Positions 2,737 to 10,235 of a stretch of DNA of 64,000 nt are shown here, piece after piece (within the stretch, counting starts at the first letter, position 1; every line of letters begins with the position of its first letter). The translations under genes and the position numbers were made by a program. This DNA is from Gemmatimonadota bacterium (GTDB lineage Bacteria > Gemmatimonadota > Gemmatimonadetes > Palauibacterales > Palauibacteraceae), in contig JBHIAV010000002.1 of NCBI GenBank assembly GCA_046758745.1, positions 49,441-113,440 on the forward strand, read 5' to 3'. The notes below the pieces were generated by a model. It was given only the letters and a program-made list of their open reading frames with translations, searched no databases and was not told the origin of the DNA.

Positions 2737-5700
2737 ATGGTGAGGGCAGTGGAGAGGGGGATGCGGGTCGGGCGGCGAGGCTTCGCACCGGAAACGCTTA
2801 TGTACCATCTCCAGAGCTTCGGCGGCGTCGCTCTCACCGGTGGAGATGGCTCCAGCATCCGACTGCGCTCCCGGAAACACCTCGCGCTACTCCTCTTCCT
2901 GGTCGCGAACGGACGACGGGTGCACACGCGCCGCGAGCTCGCCTCGCTCCTGTGGGACACTCCCCCCGGACGAGCGCGCCATTCGCTCAGCCAAGCGGTC
3001 TATGACCTGCGCTGCCGGCTCGACGGGATCATCCTTGGGTTCCCCGGGGAGGAGGTCCAGCTCGATTCAGGCCGAATCCGCTACGACGTCGACGAGCTTG
3101 AGCGAGCGGTCAAGGAGGGCAACCTCGGTCGAGCCGTTGAGTTGTACCGCGGCCCGTTTGCCACCAACCTCGACACCACCGGTACGGATGACTTCGAGCG
3201 GTGGCTCGAGACCGAGCGAGTGCGCCTCCAGCGGCTCGTTCACCTCTCGCTGCGTCGGTACGTGAAGGAGTGCGACGCCCACGCCAAGTGGGGGGAGATG
3301 TGCGTGGCCGCTCTCAAGCTGGCCGACATGGATCCGCTGGACGAGGAGGCGCACCGTGCCCTAATGCGGGGCTTGTGGTTACATGGCGATCGCACCTCGG
3401 CCCTGCGCCACTACGAGGAGATCTCCGCCTTTCTGACAAGTGAGCTCCCCGGGGGGATCTCCAGCGAGACGCGGCAACTGGCCGAGCGGATCCGCCACGA
3501 GCCGGCCGAGGGGGCGACCATCGCTACGTCTGCCGCCGAGAACCGGCCGCCCCTCGTCGGCCGTGGGCAGGAATTCGAGTTCCTCAAGGACGCAGTTAGG
3601 GAGCTTCGCCGTGGTCGGGCGGGGACAGTGGTCGTGCAAGGTGAACCGGGGATCGGAAAGAGCAGGTTGATCCAGGAGTTCGTCCGCTCGGCATGCCTTG
3701 AGCCGATCCGCGTGCTTGAAAGCCGCTGCTACGCCGCTGAGAAGGACGTGCCGTACGGCCCGGTGGTCGATGGCCTGCGTCCGATCGCAGAACAGATGGC
3801 ACGTACTCTCCCGAACGACGGCTGTCAATACACCCGGCTCGGTCACCTCTTCCAAGAGTTTGCGTCCTTCATGCAGCCGGAGATCGAGCACGGCGTCGAT
3901 CCGAATGCCTGGCGCCGTCGACTGTACGAGGAGGTGGCCGATTTGGTGCGGAACGCCTCGGAGTGGGCACCAATCTTGTGGGTAGTGGAGGACATGCACT
4001 GGATGGATGCCACCTCCCGATCCTTACTCCACTACCTGTCACGGAGGTTGGCGGAGCGTCCCTTCATGCTGGTCATGACAGAGCGCGTCGGCAAGACGCA
4101 TGTCGCTGTTCGTGCGCAACGGCGCAGACCGCCTCGTCCTGGGGAAACGATGGACCTCGTGCTGCCGCCGCTCACCGATTCCGAGATCGGGCAGCTCGTC
4201 GCCGAGGCTCTGCCCGAGGCGAAAGAGCACCCGGCGGTCGAGCTCGCACAGAAGCTGGCAGGGGGAAACCCGTTCTACGCGCTCGAGGTATTCCGGGCCG
4301 CATTCGCGTCGGCGGAGTGGATCGCCGAGGCCGACACCTGGGATCCCCTCACTGACGCAAGGTTGAGCGATGTCTTCGACATTCGCTTCCGGAACCTTCC
4401 GGACGGATCCCTTAGAATCCTGCGAGCCGTGTCCGTACTCGACCGCCACGCTACCCCCCGGCATGTCGCGGCCTTGGCCTCCCTGTCGCTGCAAGGAGCT
4501 GCCGACGTTTCCACCGAGCTGTACGAGCGCGGTCTTCTGGTTGACGGAGATTCCGAACTGGATTTCGTCAACGACATTGTGCGGGAGTACGTGTACAAGA
4601 GAATGAGCTCCATGCAGCGAGCAGCCCTGCACCTCGCTGCCGCGCAACAGCTCGATGGCGAGCCAGGAATCGGTGCGGCCACATTGGCCAGACATTACCA
4701 TCTGGGCGACGACAAGCCGAATACCTTCAAGTGTGGGATGCAAGCCGCGACCGAGGCGAGCTCGTCGGGTGGCCATCTCGAGGCTGCCTCGATGGCCACT
4801 CTCGCTCTGGCTGCAGCGGGCGAGCGGGACGAGACCCTCAGGGCTTTGCGAATCCTGGCGAGCGCCGAGCTCCTATCAGCACAACTGAAATCGGCGCAGG
4901 AGCACTACTCTCGGATTCTCGACCTCGACACCGAGATGTCGCTCGAGGCGAGAATCGAGACGAAGCTACACATCGTAGAGACGATGGCGGAACTGTCAGA
5001 GTGGGACGGAGGGCGGGAGTTGCTGAGCAGTCTCGCGGATGAGATTGAGAACATCCCTGAACCTACGGTACAACTTCGAACCCGTGCGGAGACACTTTTC
5101 TGGAGCCTCAAGATTGCAATGCGCCAGAACGACTGTGAAGCCGCACGTGCAATTGCCTTGTCTGCACGTCGGCTCCGGGACACGGCAGTCACTGAGGGAA
5201 CAGTCACCCCTGTTGCCGATGTCTCAGCGCTTTGCTGTGTAGCAGCCTACACCGCTTTCTTTGAAAACGCAGAAGATGCGCTTCAGCTCATTCAACTAGC
5301 TGAGAGGCGGATTGGGCTGATACCGGACTACTTGATCGAGAGGGTCCGACTCTTCAGTGGGATGGTCCGGCTACGGATGGCCCTATGGGATGAGGGGGAG
5401 CAGGATATCCTGGCGGCGATCGATCTGGCACGTAAACGTAAGGATCTAGTGCAGCTCAGTACCCTATGGAACAACTTGGCTTGCTGCGCTCTCGAACAAG
5501 GCGACTGGGATCGTTTCGAAAAGACTGCATCTATGGCAGAATCTATTCAAGAGAAACTACCAGTCCAGCTGGACGTTACGCTGCCATTGACGATCAATCG
5601 AGCTAACTCTCTCTTCTATCAGGGACATCCGCAGGCCGCAGGCAAGCTCTATAAGACCGCCCTCGATTCTGCGCTTGGCTTAGGATCTCGAGAGTTCGTA

Positions 5701-6126
5701 CCTGAGCTGATGGCCTGCCGAGGACTGACCGCGCTACAGCTTGGCGATCGCGCAACAGCAGAAAAGATGTGGAACGGCGTCAAGGACTTGGACGCCGCGA
5801 AACTGGCAGGTGTCCAGGAACGGTTCAAGCTTGAATGGTTTCGGGGATATCACCTAAGGAACGAAAGCTCCGCAGAGGCAGGTAGTCGGTTCTTCAAGGC
5901 TGCAGAAGAACAGGAGTTTCTCGACGTTCCAAGTTACTTGAAGATGCTGTGGCTCGGGTGCCTCTTGTTTCCGAAGTTGACTCGAGAGAGCCTGCGAGAA
6001 GCTGACCTGTTGGAACGTCTGAGGGCGGCGCGAATGTGGTGGTTCTCGAAGTTTGCCAAACGTTGGCTCAGAGCAACGGACTACCACGCACGTCGCCTAA
6101 GCCGATTCCGCGGAGCGCGAAGCTAG
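2737..6126 (+). CDS. SARP/AfsR-like regulator: winged helix + BTAD + AAA ATPase + TPR-like helical C-terminus
   Basis: 'RKHLALLLFL...RRELASLLW...RHSLSQAVYDLR' (wHTH), 'DPLDEEAHRALMR' (BTAD), Walker A GEPGIGKS, Walker B ILWVVEDMHW, GGNPFY. Start codon uncertain (2737 to about 2800). Confidence 0.88.
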   Translation: MVRAVERGMRVGRRGFAPETLMYHLQSFGGVALTGGDGSSIRLRSRKHLALLLFLVANGRRVHTRRELASLLWDTPPGRARHSLSQAVYDLRCRLDGIILGFPGEEVQLDSGRIRYDVDELERAVKEGNLGRAVELYRGPFATNLDTTGTDDFERWLETERVRLQRLVHLSLRRYVKECDAHAKWGEMCVAALKLADMDPLDEEAHRALMRGLWLHGDRTSALRHYEEISAFLTSELPGGISSETRQLAERIRHEPAEGATIATSAAENRPPLVGRGQEFEFLKDAVRELRRGRAGTVVVQGEPGIGKSRLIQEFVRSACLEPIRVLESRCYAAEKDVPYGPVVDGLRPIAEQMARTLPNDGCQYTRLGHLFQEFASFMQPEIEHGVDPNAWRRRLYEEVADLVRNASEWAPILWVVEDMHWMDATSRSLLHYLSRRLAERPFMLVMTERVGKTHVAVRAQRRRPPRPGETMDLVLPPLTDSEIGQLVAEALPEAKEHPAVELAQKLAGGNPFYALEVFRAAFASAEWIAEADTWDPLTDARLSDVFDIRFRNLPDGSLRILRAVSVLDRHATPRHVAALASLSLQGAADVSTELYERGLLVDGDSELDFVNDIVREYVYKRMSSMQRAALHLAAAQQLDGEPGIGAATLARHYHLGDDKPNTFKCGMQAATEASSSGGHLEAASMATLALAAAGERDETLRALRILASAELLSAQLKSAQEHYSRILDLDTEMSLEARIETKLHIVETMAELSEWDGGRELLSSLADEIENIPEPTVQLRTRAETLFWSLKIAMRQNDCEAARAIALSARRLRDTAVTEGTVTPVADVSALCCVAAYTAFFENAEDALQLIQLAERRIGLIPDYLIERVRLFSGMVRLRMALWDEGEQDILAAIDLARKRKDLVQLSTLWNNLACCALEQGDWDRFEKTASMAESIQEKLPVQLDVTLPLTINRANSLFYQGHPQAAGKLYKTALDSALGLGSREFVPELMACRGLTALQLGDRATAEKMWNGVKDLDAAKLAGVQERFKLEWFRGYHLRNESSAEAGSRFFKAAEEQEFLDVPSYLKMLWLGCLLFPKLTRESLREADLLERLRAARMWWFSKFAKRWLRATDYHARRLSRFRGARS

Positions 6127-7431
6127 ACCTCGCTTGGCAGCGAGGGACACTGGCTTGCTCGGGCCCACTAAGTCCTCAAGGATACCCGTCGCGACAACAA
6201 CCGCCACGACCTTCGGGTCGAACTGCGTCCCACTGTGCTTCTGCAGTTCCTCGCGAACAACCGTCACAGGAAGCGCCTCTCGATAGGGCCGTGCTGTGGT
6301 CATGGCGTCGATCGTATCGCAAACCATGATTATCCTTGCTCCGAGCGGTATTTCTTCCCTCGACAGTCCCGCAGGATAACCCTCCCCGTCGAAACGTTCG
6401 TGGTGGTGCCTTACACAGCGAAGTACCTCGCGGTGGATACTACGAATCGACTTGATGATGTCCACTCCCCGATCGGGGTGAGCGCGGATCAAATCTCGCT
6501 GTTCGGGCGTCAGAGGTCCTTTCTGTCGAAGGATCTCGCCATAGGCAACGTCGATCTTGCCGATATCGTGCAAAAGAGCGGCTGTTTCGATGATCTGTGC
6601 ATATCGCGGCCTGAGTCTCAGCGCTCTGGCGATCCTGCTGGCTGCCTCCGCAACTCGGATGGAATGACCCGACGTGTACGGATCCTGTGCTTCGATAGTC
6701 TTCACCATCAAGCGAAGCAGGTCTGTGTTCAACTGCTTCAGCTCGAAATTAATGCCATAGCTGTAGCGCAGGCCGATTAGCGGGATAATGGCCAGCAGCA
6801 CGGCAATAGGTCCCCAGCGTGTGAAGGAAACGGCGACGAGATAGGCAAGAGGGCTCATGGCGATGTCAAAGATGATCAGACCGCCCGTAATATTTCTCCA
6901 AGCCTCGCGGTACGTGTGCCCTTCTGTAAGCGACACAACGTATGCGACGGTACCCGTGTTGACGGCGAAATAGGCTAGTACGGCCATGAGAAAGGGGGGA
7001 AACGTCTGACGAAAGTCGATGCTTTCCAGACTCTCGACGCCCCCAAACCACCTAAAAACCAGACTTGCCGCAGAGACAGCGAGGACGAGCTGGGCGGTAT
7101 TGAACAGCTTCTTATAAAAAATCTTGTCGCGATAAAGAAGGAATTCCGAGAAAACCTCCGAGATGAGGGTGACTGTTACGGCACCGGAGGGTCCCAGGAG
7201 CAGAACGGCGCCCAGTTCAGGTATGAAGTCCATGGACGTGGTTGAGCCACTCTCTGAGAACTTCAAGTATAGCATCATGCTGACGATGCTTAGCGCTAGG
7301 AGAGTTGCGAAAGCAACCACAAGATTGCTGGAAGAGGGGAGGGGGTAGCGCCAGAAAATAAAAGCTGCTGAGAACGCTGCCAGCGTCGCGGCGGCGTAGA
7401 CTACAACGCGCAGGCGAGTGTCGATGGTCAT
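6097..7431 (-). CDS. Membrane-bound HD-GYP c-di-GMP phosphodiesterase with multi-TM (MASE-type) sensor domain
   Basis: About 230-aa hydrophobic N-terminus with about 7 TM segments, then DPYTSGHS, LLHDIGKI, HHERFDGEGYP, RPYR and GTQFDP. Confidence 0.93.
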   Translation of the reverse strand: MTIDTRLRVVVYAAATLAAFSAAFIFWRYPLPSSSNLVVAFATLLALSIVSMMLYLKFSESGSTTSMDFIPELGAVLLLGPSGAVTVTLISEVFSEFLLYRDKIFYKKLFNTAQLVLAVSAASLVFRWFGGVESLESIDFRQTFPPFLMAVLAYFAVNTGTVAYVVSLTEGHTYREAWRNITGGLIIFDIAMSPLAYLVAVSFTRWGPIAVLLAIIPLIGLRYSYGINFELKQLNTDLLRLMVKTIEAQDPYTSGHSIRVAEAASRIARALRLRPRYAQIIETAALLHDIGKIDVAYGEILRQKGPLTPEQRDLIRAHPDRGVDIIKSIRSIHREVLRCVRHHHERFDGEGYPAGLSREEIPLGARIIMVCDTIDAMTTARPYREALPVTVVREELQKHSGTQFDPKVVAVVVATGILEDLVGPSKPVSLAAKRGLASRSAESA

Positions 7432-7457
7432 CTACTGAGGACCCCCAACCCCTGCTA

Positions 7458-7553
7458 TTACCACCTGACCGTTCCACCCCAGCGGACCGTTCCACCCCAG
7501 CGGACCGTTCCGCCGAACAACCTGGCAAGCCAGTTGGTGCTGATCAGTAGCAT
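7458..7553 (-). CDS. 31-aa small peptide MLLISTNWLARLF(GGTVRW)x3; putative signalling/RiPP-like precursor, not in the ORF track
   Basis: ATG at 7553 with AAAGGAGGTG 7 nt upstream; TAA followed immediately by TAG; three 18-nt repeats that differ only synonymously. Confidence 0.82.
   Translation of the reverse strand: MLLISTNWLARLFGGTVRWGGTVRWGGTVRW
7461..7514 (-). repeat. 3 x 18-bp tandem repeat encoding GGTVRW
   Basis: Minus strand: GGCGGAACGGTCCGCTGG / GGTGGAACGGTCCGCTGG / GGTGGAACGGTCAGGTGG. Confidence 0.95.
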
Positions 7554-7560
7554 CGAAGCT

Positions 7561-7570
7561 CACCTCCTTT
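7561..7570 (-). promoter_or_regulatory. Strong Shine-Dalgarno site for the small peptide
   Basis: AAAGGAGGTG on the minus strand, 7 nt before ATG 7553. Confidence 0.85.
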
Positions 7571-7576
7571 CGAGTT

Positions 7577-7609
7577 GAAGACATACCCGTTCGCTACAGG
7601 GTATGCTTC
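7577..7609. other. Stem-loop just upstream of the peptide RBS
   Basis: GAAG-A-CATACCC (7577-7588) pairs with GGGTATG-CTTC (7599-7609); 10-nt loop. Confidence 0.55.
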
Positions 7610-7806
7610 GTCTCCGCTCGGAGGTCGCTCCGCTCAGCTCTCGGTGGCGAGCCGCAGAGATTGGGGGTTCCTCTGGCTATCGCATCCCGGTCTATAGGTT
7701 TATCTGCGGCGCCAAAACGACTAAGCGCGCTGGGCCGCAAGGCTTCCCACAGTCGACCCAAGAAAGAAAAGCAATTGCAGGCCGCAACGCAACTGGGCGC
7801 CGGGGA

Positions 7807-8508
7807 TTACTTGTTCGCTATCCAGCGGTTGGTGGCGTGAAGGCAGGCCAGAACAGCCGCCTCCTCTGGCGAGTCCTGCACTCTGCCGATCCCGGCCAGG
7901 CAGACCGTGGTACGTCTGGCGTGGTCGTGAACGACAACCGCGAGCAGGCGACGTCCCAAAGCGTCGATCTGACTCACCCCCTCCAAAGAAAGGGAGGTCT
8001 TGTCCCCCGTGGCCTTCTGGATCGCCTGCAGAACAGCGTCGCAGGCGACCTCGAGGCGAGACTTCGCGTAGTCGGGACCCTCGGCCTCTCCGACGTACTC
8101 GGTGTCGCCAGAGCGCAGCTGCACCCGGCAGGAGACCTGCTGACCCGTCTTGCGCTCGATGTGGAATCCGTCTAGGAGGAAGCGTCTGGCGCCAGCCTGC
8201 GTCTCGGCCTCGGCCTCGGCCTCCGAGACCACGGGGATCTCGGGTCCCTTCAGCCTCGCGACAGAGATCTTGCGGTGGTCTATCTGGAGGCCGAACTCCG
8301 CGAGGAGGGCCGATTCGATGTTGCGGACGATCTGTTTCGCCGAGAGGTCAGCGACGCTGAGCACGTGAATCTCATCGATGCCGCCATGCCCATCGGGCAC
8401 GATCTTCAGGGAGCTCACCCCATCGAGACCCACCAGCAGCTTTTCGATCCGGCGCAAGCCCCAGGGATCCACGCCCCTTGCCGCCGGCTCTCCGGCCTCT
8501 CGGCTCAT
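7807..8508 (-). CDS. Conserved hypothetical protein ('EIHVL...KQIVRNIESAL...IDHRKISVA' N-domain; C-domain resembling the LeuA allosteric domain)
   Basis: ATG 8508 overlaps the upstream TGA (ATGA) and has GGAGG upstream; 233 aa. The longer 8796 start overlaps the GGDEF gene and is unlikely. Confidence 0.78.
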   Translation of the reverse strand: MSREAGEPAARGVDPWGLRRIEKLLVGLDGVSSLKIVPDGHGGIDEIHVLSVADLSAKQIVRNIESALLAEFGLQIDHRKISVARLKGPEIPVVSEAEAEAETQAGARRFLLDGFHIERKTGQQVSCRVQLRSGDTEYVGEAEGPDYAKSRLEVACDAVLQAIQKATGDKTSLSLEGVSQIDALGRRLLAVVVHDHARRTTVCLAGIGRVQDSPEEAAVLACLHATNRWIANK

Positions 8509-10235
8509 CGAACGAGCTTCCCTCCGATCGCGGGGTGTACAGTGTTGCCTCCGTGCGCCTTGGCAACATAGAGAGAGGCATCCGCCTCCGCCATCAGGGC
8601 CTCGCTCGTCAGAACGGACCGCGCCGCCCCTGAATGATAAGCGAGACCAATGCTTAGCGTAACCCCCGCCTCTCCCTGTGGCGTATGAACCCGGAAGGTC
8701 TCTGCCTGAGATCGAATCTCCTCGGCCACCCGCGCGGCGCCCTCGGGGTCGGCGTTTACGAGGATAAGAACGAACTCGTCGCCTCCGAAGCGACACGCGA
8801 TGTCGGTGGCCCGGATGGCTCCTCTCAGGATATCGGCGACACCCCGCAGGATGTCGTTGCCGGCTGCGTGACCGAGCCGATCGTTGATCGGCTTGAAGTC
8901 ATCCAGGTCGATGAACAAGACGGCGAGGGAGGTACCGCTCCGATTGGCGCGTGCCACCTCCTGAGCCAAGCGTTCCTCGAGTACCCGATACGTGAAGAGT
9001 CCGGTGAGGGCGTCATGCATGGCGTCGCGTGACGCCTGCTCGACCTGACGTCCCAGGTAGTAAGGGCAGATCGATAGGGTGGCCCGTCCTCGGGAGATGG
9101 CATCGGCGAAGTCGACGCACCTCGCGTGGCCGCAGGCCCCGCAATCCCAGTACGCACCGCCGGGAGCCCTTCCGATTCGCTCGAGCACGCGAGCCGCTTG
9201 CGCGGAGTCGGCCGGTGGAAGCGCCGCGGCATTCGGCTCGAAGGAGGCGCTGAGATCCAGAGCCGGCGGAACATCGACTACGGGCTCCCCGGAACGCCCG
9301 CCTTCCGCGAGCTCGGCGATCGCTTTGCGCCAGAAAAGGTCCTCATGCCGCCCGAAGGCGGGATGATCGAGGCTGCCCTCGAACGGTAGGACGTCGAGGA
9401 AGCCGAGTTCGCGTTCGCTGCTGACCACCGCTTGGGCGACGGCGCTCAGGGCGTGCAGGCCCCGGATCTTGCTGAACCGCCGCGATGAGAGGGACTCCTC
9501 CTCAAGCATGGCCAGCGGAAGCCCACCCGCGGTGGAGAGGTGACGGCGCCGCTCCGGCGGGATGCGCTCGAGCGTGAGGGGCTGCCTCTCCGGGTCCGCG
9601 CCCTTGTGGATCAAGAGATCCTTCAGCTCCTCGAAGGAGATGCATGCGCTGATACCCTGTTCGTCGCGGTCCGGCCCTGGAGTCGCCAGACCAGCGTAGA
9701 TGATCCTGTATTCTGGCCCGTAATGGGTGCGAAGAAACCGACCGAGGGCAACGGCAGGCGTGACGATGGGCGCCAGGAAGGGCAGCAGGGCGGGGAGCCT
9801 GACTCGGCAGTAGTCGACCACGATGGAGCTGGTGGAGCGGATCCACGTCCTGGGGGAATCTTCCCGCCACAGGCGCAGATACTCGTGCGCCACCAGCTCA
9901 TCGCCCAAGGTCTCAAAGTATACGCCGTGAAAGCCCGCCCGGAAGCAGGCGTTGATGATCTGCTCTGGCGTGGCCGGGTGGAAACTGACGGCCACTTCGG
10001 CCGGTAAGATGAGGATCGCCCGGTCCTTCTCGATGGCTTCCCGCACCTCCCGGATGTCACCGACGACGTCGATAGCATCGTGGTGGCAGGCCGGAACGCA
10101 AAGGCCGCACTCGATGCACGTCTCCCCGACGATCCGCACCTCGTTCCCCGAAACGGCGATCGCCTCGACGGGACAGACGCGGACGCAGGCCATGCACGCC
10201 GTGCAGTTGTCGTTGACCGAGAAGCTAAGGTTCAC
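8505..10235 (-). CDS. Diguanylate cyclase with 2x[4Fe-4S] ferredoxin, degenerate [FeFe]-hydrogenase large-subunit-like domain and small Fe-S domain
   Basis: CTACMACVRVCP and CIECGLCVPAC; DCGACGHARC...CP; HDALTGL, IDLDDFKPIND, RATD I-site 5 residues before GGDEF. Confidence 0.9.
   Translation of the reverse strand: MNLSFSVNDNCTACMACVRVCPVEAIAVSGNEVRIVGETCIECGLCVPACHHDAIDVVGDIREVREAIEKDRAILILPAEVAVSFHPATPEQIINACFRAGFHGVYFETLGDELVAHEYLRLWREDSPRTWIRSTSSIVVDYCRVRLPALLPFLAPIVTPAVALGRFLRTHYGPEYRIIYAGLATPGPDRDEQGISACISFEELKDLLIHKGADPERQPLTLERIPPERRRHLSTAGGLPLAMLEEESLSSRRFSKIRGLHALSAVAQAVVSSERELGFLDVLPFEGSLDHPAFGRHEDLFWRKAIAELAEGGRSGEPVVDVPPALDLSASFEPNAAALPPADSAQAARVLERIGRAPGGAYWDCGACGHARCVDFADAISRGRATLSICPYYLGRQVEQASRDAMHDALTGLFTYRVLEERLAQEVARANRSGTSLAVLFIDLDDFKPINDRLGHAAGNDILRGVADILRGAIRATDIACRFGGDEFVLILVNADPEGAARVAEEIRSQAETFRVHTPQGEAGVTLSIGLAYHSGAARSVLTSEALMAEADASLYVAKAHGGNTVHPAIGGKLVR

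Follow-up and report, generated by a model that had tools for sequence, protein, structure and literature searches.

A conserved micro-ORF in the leader of a MASE9-HD-GYP phosphodiesterase gene across one order of Gemmatimonadota

A micro-ORF that is conserved in the leader of a MASE9-HD-GYP gene was found across one order of Gemmatimonadota. The copy analyzed here lies in a 64,000-nt stretch of DNA (the window) from a 3.08-Mb assembly of 130 contigs that is 87% complete, and pattern scans detected one copy of the module in that genome. Judging from the alignments and predicted folds, the ribosome site of the downstream HD-GYP gene appears to be sequestered in a conserved helix, in or beside which the leader ORF ends. 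We consider it probable, with appreciable room for error, that translation of the micro-ORF unmasks the HD-GYP gene and that the peptide is most likely a membrane partner of the MASE9 domain.

The micro-ORF and its genomic setting

The micro-ORF of the window encodes MLLISTNWLARLFGGTVRWGGTVRWGGTVRW on the minus strand (31 codons plus TAA). Its Shine-Dalgarno sequence (SD; AAAGGAGGTG) stands 7 nt from the ATG, translation would end at a double stop (TAA then TAG, 7455-7460), and 26 nt separate the micro-ORF stop from the HD-GYP ATG (7431). All of these features, as read in the initial annotation, were confirmed to the base. The HD-GYP translation has visible HD and HHExxDGxGYP motifs. The features of the leader and of the gene behind it are listed below, from the 5' end of the minus strand.

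7654..7667, minus strand: P1a 5' arm (CCCCCAAUCUCUGC), paired with 7442-7455 in the minimum free energy (MFE) fold; compensatory changes in 10 of 12 pairs (64 leaders)
7643..7648, minus strand: P1b 5' arm, GCCACC, predicted to pair with the last codons of the micro-ORF; both-sided changes in 4 of 6 pairs
7625..7640, minus strand: GAGC(N) repeat block, near-invariant in family f1, with an alternative pairing to CCUCC in the fold of one leader (L005); putative functional element
7612..7624, minus strand: invariant 13-mer CCUCCGAGCGGAG, holding CCUCC (7620-7624), which is complementary to the micro-ORF SD (anti-SD)
7582..7606, minus strand: hairpin P3 (GCAUACCC / GGGUAUG) with a conserved UAGCG loop, from the alignment consensus of 64 leaders
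7561..7570, minus strand: SD of the micro-ORF (AAAGGAGGUG), read in the sequence
7458..7553, minus strand: micro-ORF
7461..7514, minus strand: three tandem 18-nt units (7497-7514, 7479-7496, 7461-7478), each encoding GGTVRW, from the sequence and Tandem Repeats Finder
7460-7465, minus strand: P1b 3' arm, consisting of the Trp codon and the first stop-codon base, from the fold
7442-7455, minus strand: P1a 3' arm GCAGGGGUUGGGGG, from the fold, whose G-run is the likely HD-GYP ribosome site
6097..7431, minus strand: gene for a MASE9 and HD-GYP (HD_5) c-di-GMP phosphodiesterase of 444 aa (Pfam MASE9, 1.3e-09; HD_5, 7.5e-35)

Upstream of the leader, on the same strand, lie a gene for a GGDEF protein with Fe-S/hydrogenase-like domains (8505-10235) and a gene for a hypothetical protein (7807-8508) that shares an ATGA overlap with it. 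The hypothetical protein falls in clusters from Gemmatimonadota only, its conserved C-terminus recurs upstream in relatives, and its gene is followed by a terminator-like hairpin (7795-7772). A scan of 7000-8400 for sigma-70-like promoters returned no site. A 50-codon ORF in another frame (7432-7584), which ends immediately before the HD-GYP ATG, was dropped as it is not conserved in relatives.

Conservation of the micro-ORF was assessed from the protein side and from the leader side. The HD-GYP protein was searched in 40 relatives, and full-length orthologues were found. Immediately in front of each of the 10 orthologues with 47-70% identity stands a small ORF with the common SD; the initial annotation had suggested looking there in homologous genes. 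Examples of the encoded peptides are MGSLWLVLLLGGTVRW, MNFFMLLFGGTLKW, MWALFLAALAGTLRW, and MLFLIALLTGSLDW. One homologue of 45% identity (L015) is without a small ORF. Pattern scans used the invariant leader 13-mer and the SD. The genome_contigs scan returned 48 stretches, made up of 37 true instances and 11 chance matches, the latter in other phyla and without the ORF or an HD-GYP gene; the metagenome_contigs scan returned 80, with 52 true instances and 28 chance matches. The micro-ORF is complete in 34 of the 37 genome_contigs instances (the other 3 are cut by locus ends) and in 49 of the 52 metagenome_contigs instances (the other 3 are cut by contig ends). The proposed tie between the ORF and the adjacent membrane HD-GYP gene held throughout: wherever a locus extends at least 400 nt downstream, the gene is present (32 of 32 loci in genomes, 38 of 38 in metagenomes), and in all 70 of these leaders a MASE9-HD-GYP gene stands 24-48 nt behind the micro-ORF. 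Every true hit has the SD AAAGGAGG, which formed part of both search patterns; the 10 orthologous loci found by protein alone carry it too. The occurrence of the small ORF before the HD-GYP gene is thus far beyond chance.

The related contigs recovered by the genome_contigs scan are labelled Gemmatimonadota. Besides family f1, to which the window belongs, we recognized a family f2 of orthologues (~40% identity) with a variant leader that has no CCUCC anti-SD element and with ORFs of 22-27 codons, e.g., MTWMLQLLAAIASLFAGSIAWG; in one f2 locus (L021) the ORF is truncated to 18 codons. A wider pattern matched 42 of 121 genomes of the order (f1, 35 of 89; f2, 6 of 31), with 2 hits for the reversed control. 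The exact f1 pattern matched 4 of 201 genomes sampled across the phylum, including the window's own and all of them f1, a count that understates the range because this pattern contains the f1-only CCUCC.

Coding selection and the repeated C-terminal unit

The 86 instances gave 50 distinct f1 peptides of 13-23 residues, besides the window's 31-residue peptide. They share a layout in which Trp or Phe near the N-terminus is followed by a hydrophobic run and then by [GAT]-G-x-[LVI]-x-W; over 69 distinct ORFs the consensus of the C-terminal end is [GAT]-G-[TSK]-[LVI]-[RKD]-W. Gly occupies position -5 in 68 of the 69 ORFs and Trp the last position in 59, and Trp is usually also present at codon 2-5. 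At position -6, G stands in 42 ORFs, A in 16, T in 9, and S and I in one each. Where Trp is not last (10 ORFs), the final residue is L, I, V, A, F, or E, and f2 ORFs end in W-G. The hydrophobic part amounts to 8-12 residues in f1 peptides and to about 18-20 residues, flanked by Trp, in f2 peptides; no other N-terminal part is as weakly hydrophobic as that of the window peptide (MLLISTNWLARLF). All lineages start with ATG but one, which uses TTG. Neither Pfam (E up to 10) nor NCBIfam (E up to 1) returned a family for the 31-aa peptide, a length at which profiles are weak, and a Protein Atlas query with the peptide gave no usable match.

Substitutions in the micro-ORF are those of a coding sequence under constraint. 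Over 107 same-length pairs of micro-ORFs, which are not independent of each other, pN/pS was 0.125. Near-identical pairs differ almost always synonymously, and any two of the four genes for MQLWALIALLAGKLDW are 4-6 nt apart, with 0 non-synonymous differences. Summed entropy over the final six codons peaks at third positions (7.5 vs 5.3 and 4.4). The three 18-nt units of the window (GGC GGA ACG GTC CGC TGG / GGT GGA ACG GTC CGC TGG / GGT GGA ACG GTC AGG TGG) differ by 3 nt, every one synonymous, as had been noted from the sequence. Selection on the peptide, which the initial annotation had deduced from the window repeats, is borne out by the pN/pS value and by the synonymous differences among repeat copies, and the data support the view that the micro-ORF is translated and selected as a peptide.

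Tandem Repeats Finder recorded the window repeat with a period of 18, 2.5 copies, and 100% matches. Such repetition is the exception, since 53 of 58 distinct peptides from relatives carry a single unit. The initial annotation had suggested a scan upstream of HD-GYP homologues for short, repeated peptides ending in Trp; the Trp ending proved common (41 of the 50 distinct f1 peptides), and the repetition did not. In-frame tandem duplications of the 3' part of the ORF nevertheless recur: GGTVRW three times in the window, TGKILW twice in a clade comprising L012, L039, L061, and metagenome copies, GLIRI twice in L062 (one copy in its relative L064), and FAGNI twice in the f2 locus L019, where an exact 15-nt repeat lies internally, before TWG. 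Apart from that exact repeat, copies within a genome differ, always synonymously, by 3 nt in the window, 2 in L012, 1 in L039, 1 in L061, and 6 of 15 nt in L062. Random non-synonymous changes, which would have spoken against the peptide, are absent between these copies, and the pattern indicates that selection keeps the amino acids of each copy.

In a quick maximum-likelihood tree of 45 HD-GYP proteins, from which L019 was left out, the three f1 repeat lineages fell in separate, well-supported clades. Counting L019, duplication of the ORF end arose at least four times independently, and the window triplet is a lineage-specific, in-frame tandem expansion of a conserved C-terminal unit. Among 64 f1 leaders, tandem repeats with units of at least 15 nt occur only inside the ORF, which makes up 23% of leader length; the L062 repeat is too diverged for detection in that scan. 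Contigs from RNA libraries that belong to a close relative (90-95% alike over 7510-7639/7666) run into ...TLKWGGTLKW, which shows that another multi-unit form exists; they come from 4 runs of one study, share 0.04 of the stretch with one short contig each, and are assemblies and no proof of transcription. The hexapeptide thus stands as a unit that has been duplicated several times with its amino acids kept, and the set of three cores is peculiar to the window lineage.

These repeats bear on the function first suggested for the window peptide, that of a precursor with several cores, from which cleavage after a double-glycine-type leader would yield an exported or processed signal (GGTVRW or TVRW) for the membrane HD-GYP protein to sense. 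Double-glycine peptides handled by C39 transporters do resemble the module in having Gly-Gly, Ala-Gly, or Thr-Gly before a conserved C-terminal unit, and the small-residue pair (Gly at -5; G, A, or T at -6) would be a putative cleavage site. The independent duplications of a 5-6-residue unit with identical amino acids, the ...TLKWGGTLKW contigs, and one C39-domain ABC-type ORF in the window genome would all suit a precursor. We nevertheless find it improbable. The single unit is the rule, and three cores are not typical of the family. What would be the leader consists in f1 of 7-13 hydrophobic residues with no polar or acidic register, no conserved acidic position was found in the 50 distinct f1 peptides, and residue -6 is A or T in 25 of the 69 distinct ORFs; the double-glycine register proposed initially does not survive this comparison. 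Unlike the leaders of double-glycine C39 peptides, which run to some 15 residues or more, the pre-sequence is too short and purely hydrophobic, and it lies inside a translational control leader. The duplicated unit of L019, being internal, offers no releasable C-terminal core.

The gene content points the same way, as no co-occurring C39 transporter accompanies the module. The C39 peptidase family PF03412 has one match in the window genome, on contig C18 rather than the window's contig, and no match in 6 of 10 leader-bearing f1 relatives (G002, G004, G005, G012, G013, and G014; 91-96% complete). Among the 13 neighboring ORFs scanned with Pfam (at least 180 aa, within 20 kb), there was no C39 peptidase domain, transporter for the peptide, modifying enzyme, or dedicated protease, in agreement with the initial annotation. 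Their matches were to an M20 peptidase, a BTAD regulator, GGDEF, thymidine kinase, ABC/TOBE, a PBP-like solute-binding protein, a MazE-like domain, a UbiE-type methyltransferase, and a chorismate-binding enzyme, and 3 of the 13 had no family match. A double-glycine or RiPP precursor was therefore rejected on leader length and register, C39 co-occurrence, and the 13 neighboring ORFs scanned. The peptide pheromones of Firmicutes (ComS/XIP, SHP-Rgg, and plasmid inhibitor peptides) have precursors of about 17-23 residues with an active C-terminal 7-8, and rely on a membrane protease, on an exporter and an oligopeptide importer, and on a receptor in the cytoplasm. The short precursor and C-terminal unit recall them, whereas the host here belongs to another phylum and has a diderm envelope.

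A long-range helix around the micro-ORF

The leader is predicted to form a long-range helix, P1, of 25-30 bp. Its 5' arm is C-rich, and its 3' arm runs from the final micro-ORF codons over a G-run 10-20 nt upstream of the HD-GYP start. In 34 leaders, P1 duplex energies ranged from -33 to -56 kcal/mol (z from -1.3 to -7.3), and in 33 of them the duplex is predicted to extend into the final micro-ORF codons. In f2, the micro-ORF stop codon itself is paired. Folds of whole leaders had a z of about -5.3 relative to shuffles.

Covariation was counted on a sequence-only alignment of 64 leaders. Both-sided changes occur in 14 of the 18 counted P1 pairs and in 19 of the 30 pairs of the whole structure. 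The paired fraction of cells was 85.7%, vs 37-51% with slid partners, and the observed covariation score was reached by 0 of 500 shuffles. The P1 columns were taken from pairing fractions and then counted on the same alignment, so that the slid-partner control is the fairer of the two. P1 is absent from the RNAalifold consensus of the 64-leader MAFFT alignment, because its two arms are out of register there. Hairpin P3 has 7 pairs, with 100% of cells paired and compensatory changes in 5 pairs (64 leaders).

A further pairing, CCUCC with GGAGG of the micro-ORF SD, is present both in the RNAalifold consensus and in the MFE fold of the window. Its 5 pairs are invariant, and covariation therefore speaks neither for nor against the anti-SD pairing. 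Rfam 15 covariance models, searched on both strands of 6800-8400 with E up to 1, gave no match.

Proposed unmasking of the HD-GYP gene and a possible membrane role of the peptide

The geometry of the leader suggests how the two ORFs may be coupled. P1 would hide the HD-GYP ribosome site, and a ribosome that translates the micro-ORF to its stop would melt P1, freeing the HD-GYP start 24-48 nt downstream or reinitiating there. Synthesis of HD-GYP would then require translation of the micro-ORF and roughly match it in frequency. In f1 leaders, the invariant CCUCC may provide a second control point by shutting the micro-ORF SD. Such an arrangement has relatives in erm, cat/cmlA, secM-secA, mifM-yidC2, and tnaC, where a leader ORF controls a downstream ribosome site held in a helix. 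As in those systems, the regulated gene follows a short ORF that has a strong SD of its own, and the gene's ribosome site appears to be buried in a pairing that would be disrupted once a ribosome reaches the end of the leader ORF. Unlike in those systems, the long-range helix surrounds the entire ORF, the peptide is hydrophobic and under selection over its full length, and the regulated gene encodes a c-di-GMP phosphodiesterase.

Three alternatives place the role of the micro-ORF entirely within the leader. The peptide might be a ribosome-arrest leader peptide, whose nascent chain slows or blocks termination, possibly in response to a small molecule, with the stalled ribosome holding P1 open and the peptide having no function after release. 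This is the main rival to the preferred reading, and we judge it unlikely. The helix that hides the HD-GYP ribosome site has the stop and final codons of the micro-ORF at its foot, conservation peaks in the last six residues with Gly -5 and the last Trp, and peptides of 13-23 residues fit inside the tunnel. A precedent of the same size class exists in PepNL, a 14-residue E. coli peptide that arrests at the stop codon, with that codon in the A site and with largely hydrophobic contacts between its residues and the tunnel (PMC11890864). Several observations fit arrest poorly. For a motif that has to fit an invariant ribosome, the penultimate residue (R/K or D/E, also A/S/L) and the last (W, L, I, V, A, F, or an extra G/E) vary much, and all three stop codons are used (52 TAA, 20 TAG, and 14 TGA). 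The hydrophobicity of the N-terminal part and the Trp-flanked run of f2 would not be needed, and repeat copies 12-18 residues from the end are still identical in amino acids.

Classical attenuator leader peptides couple operons to their amino acid, and the final UGG within P1 could work similarly: scarce charged tRNA-Trp would cause a pause on that codon and open the HD-GYP ribosome site, which would link c-di-GMP breakdown to amino acid supply. The frequent terminal Trp, the usual second Trp at codon 2-5, and the location of the last codons within P1b agree with such sensing. We consider it very improbable, given the 10 of 69 distinct ORFs that end otherwise and the W-G end of f2, purifying selection on residues such as Gly -5 that a codon sensor does not need, and the internal Trp codons of the repeats, which would hold ribosomes upstream of P1. 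Passive coupling, in which only translation through to the stop matters and the amino acid sequence is irrelevant, would explain the position of the ORF end by helix geometry alone. It deserves hardly any credence and is disfavored by the substitution pattern, that is, by the low pN/pS, by close relatives and repeat copies that differ only synonymously, and by a hydrophobic character and a G-x-[LVI]-x-W end that are kept across two families whose HD-GYP proteins are ~40% identical.

In the reading that we prefer, the released peptide would be a very small membrane peptide acting on the MASE9 sensor domain of the protein with which it is produced. We favor it because hydrophobicity is conserved over the whole N-terminal part, because the f2 run of about 18-20 residues is flanked by Trp, because the C-terminal positions are too variable to fit an invariant ribosome, and because of a charge pattern between peptide and MASE9 that is described below. 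A published proposal that MASE9 binds its ligand within the membrane adds to these reasons; the portion of that source used here mentions only one MASE9 protein studied experimentally, which was poorly expressed (10.1101/2021.11.05.467447). Both the membrane location of the peptide and its action on MASE9 are suggested by these features, just as unmasking by translation is suggested by geometry only. Against the membrane-partner reading, the f1 hydrophobic stretch of 8-12 residues is short for a membrane span, and the strongest conservation, at the extreme C-terminus, fits an arrest peptide equally well.

Small membrane proteins that modulate a membrane partner include MgrB (with PhoQ), KdpF, AcrZ, and CydX, of about 29-49 residues. 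The module shares with them a tiny hydrophobic peptide that is encoded and made with a polytopic membrane protein; it differs in that its peptides have 13-23 residues and in that binding is putative. A more specific form of the membrane-partner reading is possible, if tentative: the peptide may be a self-made, membrane-embedded ligand or subunit of MASE9, whose C-terminal G-x-[LVI]-x-W docks on the cytoplasmic side of MASE9 near the invariant Asn111/Gln114 and residues 92, 95, and 115 and switches the phosphodiesterase, with tandem units acting as a multivalent ligand or as several ligands and the leader enforcing co-production. If so, this would be the first peptide-gated c-di-GMP enzyme and the peptide would be among the smallest functional bacterial membrane peptides. 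We found no c-di-GMP enzyme with a small membrane-protein partner in the literature searched. Searches on MASE9/HD-GYP, leader peptides and uORFs, the motif strings, and micropeptides with c-di-GMP returned no description of the module (their coverage excluded supplementary small-ORF lists). New here are the recurrent tandem expansion, the measures of coding selection, the variant in f2, the failure of the double-glycine model in its tests, and the peptide-MASE9 charge lead.

Hardly any signals are known for the membrane-embedded MASE-type domains of c-di-GMP enzymes. The module offers a compact genetic handle, with a covarying RNA leader, a selected micro-ORF, and natural variants of one, two, and three units. 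It makes testable how an HD-GYP phosphodiesterase is set at the level of translation, and whether a peptide of 14-23 residues acts on a sensor domain inside the membrane. It also shows that bacterial peptides under selection can be much shorter than gene callers usually accept.

A co-fold of MASE9 (residues 1-236, 45-row alignment) with the 31-aa peptide gave a score of 0.06 against a mark of 0.32 and counts neither way. Both times that the penultimate residue of the peptide flipped independently (R/K vs D/E), charge at MASE9 positions 92, 95, and 115 changed with it. All 28 R/K-type genomes have L/M/V/I/S/F at position 115, S/T/I at 95, and E/Q/T at 92; in D/E-type genomes, which have two independent origins, positions 115 and 95 are each K/R/T, and 92 is no longer E. 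Over the two independent events, 4 columns change so as to compensate and 3 change the other way, and we regard the covariation as a lead, not a result. Hydropathy and charge pattern would place positions 92, 95, and 115 at the cytoplasmic membrane face, and position 115 adjoins the invariant Gln114.

Genes flanking the HD-GYP gene and its leader

Three genes surround the MASE9-HD-GYP gene and its RNA leader in the window.

8505-10235, minus strand: GGDEF diguanylate cyclase with N-terminal 4Fe-4S and Fe-hydrogenase-like domains
7807-8508, minus strand: 233-aa protein gene, next after the GGDEF gene
2737-6126, plus strand: BTAD, AAA_16, and TPR regulator gene (1129 aa; domain match)

The GGDEF and 233-aa protein genes, which lie upstream of the leader, are joined by an ATGA start/stop overlap. 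No family match was obtained for the 233-aa protein in Pfam or NCBIfam, and its known relatives all fall in Gemmatimonadota clusters. Its conserved C-terminus was also found upstream of the leader in relatives. On the other side, the regulator gene is convergent with the HD-GYP gene, and their 3' ends overlap by 30 nt. G+C falls to 0.58 in window positions 4001-8000, compared with 0.66-0.70 across the remaining window; the regulator gene, the leader and the HD-GYP gene itself all lie under this dip.

Other frames and pairings in the repeats

The GGTVRW repeats of the micro-ORF are also crossed by a second reading frame.

7432-7584, minus strand: 50-codon ORF in a frame other than that of the micro-ORF (ORF listing)

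It reads NGPLGW NGPLGW, and its TAG stop directly adjoins the HD-GYP ATG. This ORF shows no conservation in relatives and was set aside. At each Trp-Gly-Gly junction of the repeats (7479-7514, minus strand), the G-rich, SD-like UGGGGUGG arises. Judged from its sequence, UGGGGUGG could pair with either 5' arm (CCCCC or GCCACC) of the long-range leader helix P1 in an alternative register.

Atypical loci among relatives

In L021/L158 (genome G026), which has the variant leader of family f2, the micro-ORF is shortened (MVALMLQVATWFFANLAG). Behind this ORF there is neither the usual 3' arm nor the G-run, and the HD-GYP frame begins almost immediately; this leader is possibly a decayed or rearranged form. 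At L051, an intact leader is followed by an HD-GYP gene that tblastn aligned to the query as three overlapping pieces, a pattern suggestive of frameshifts or of errors in the assembly.

The full Gemmatimonadota-type module (leader, micro-ORF, and HD-GYP gene) was also found on L058 and L064, contigs of metagenome-assembled genomes labelled Akkermansiaceae and Alphaproteobacteria. For these labels, mis-binning seems more likely than transfer. The L058 HD-GYP protein has a near-identical metagenome counterpart, which lies within the GGTVRW clade of the protein tree.
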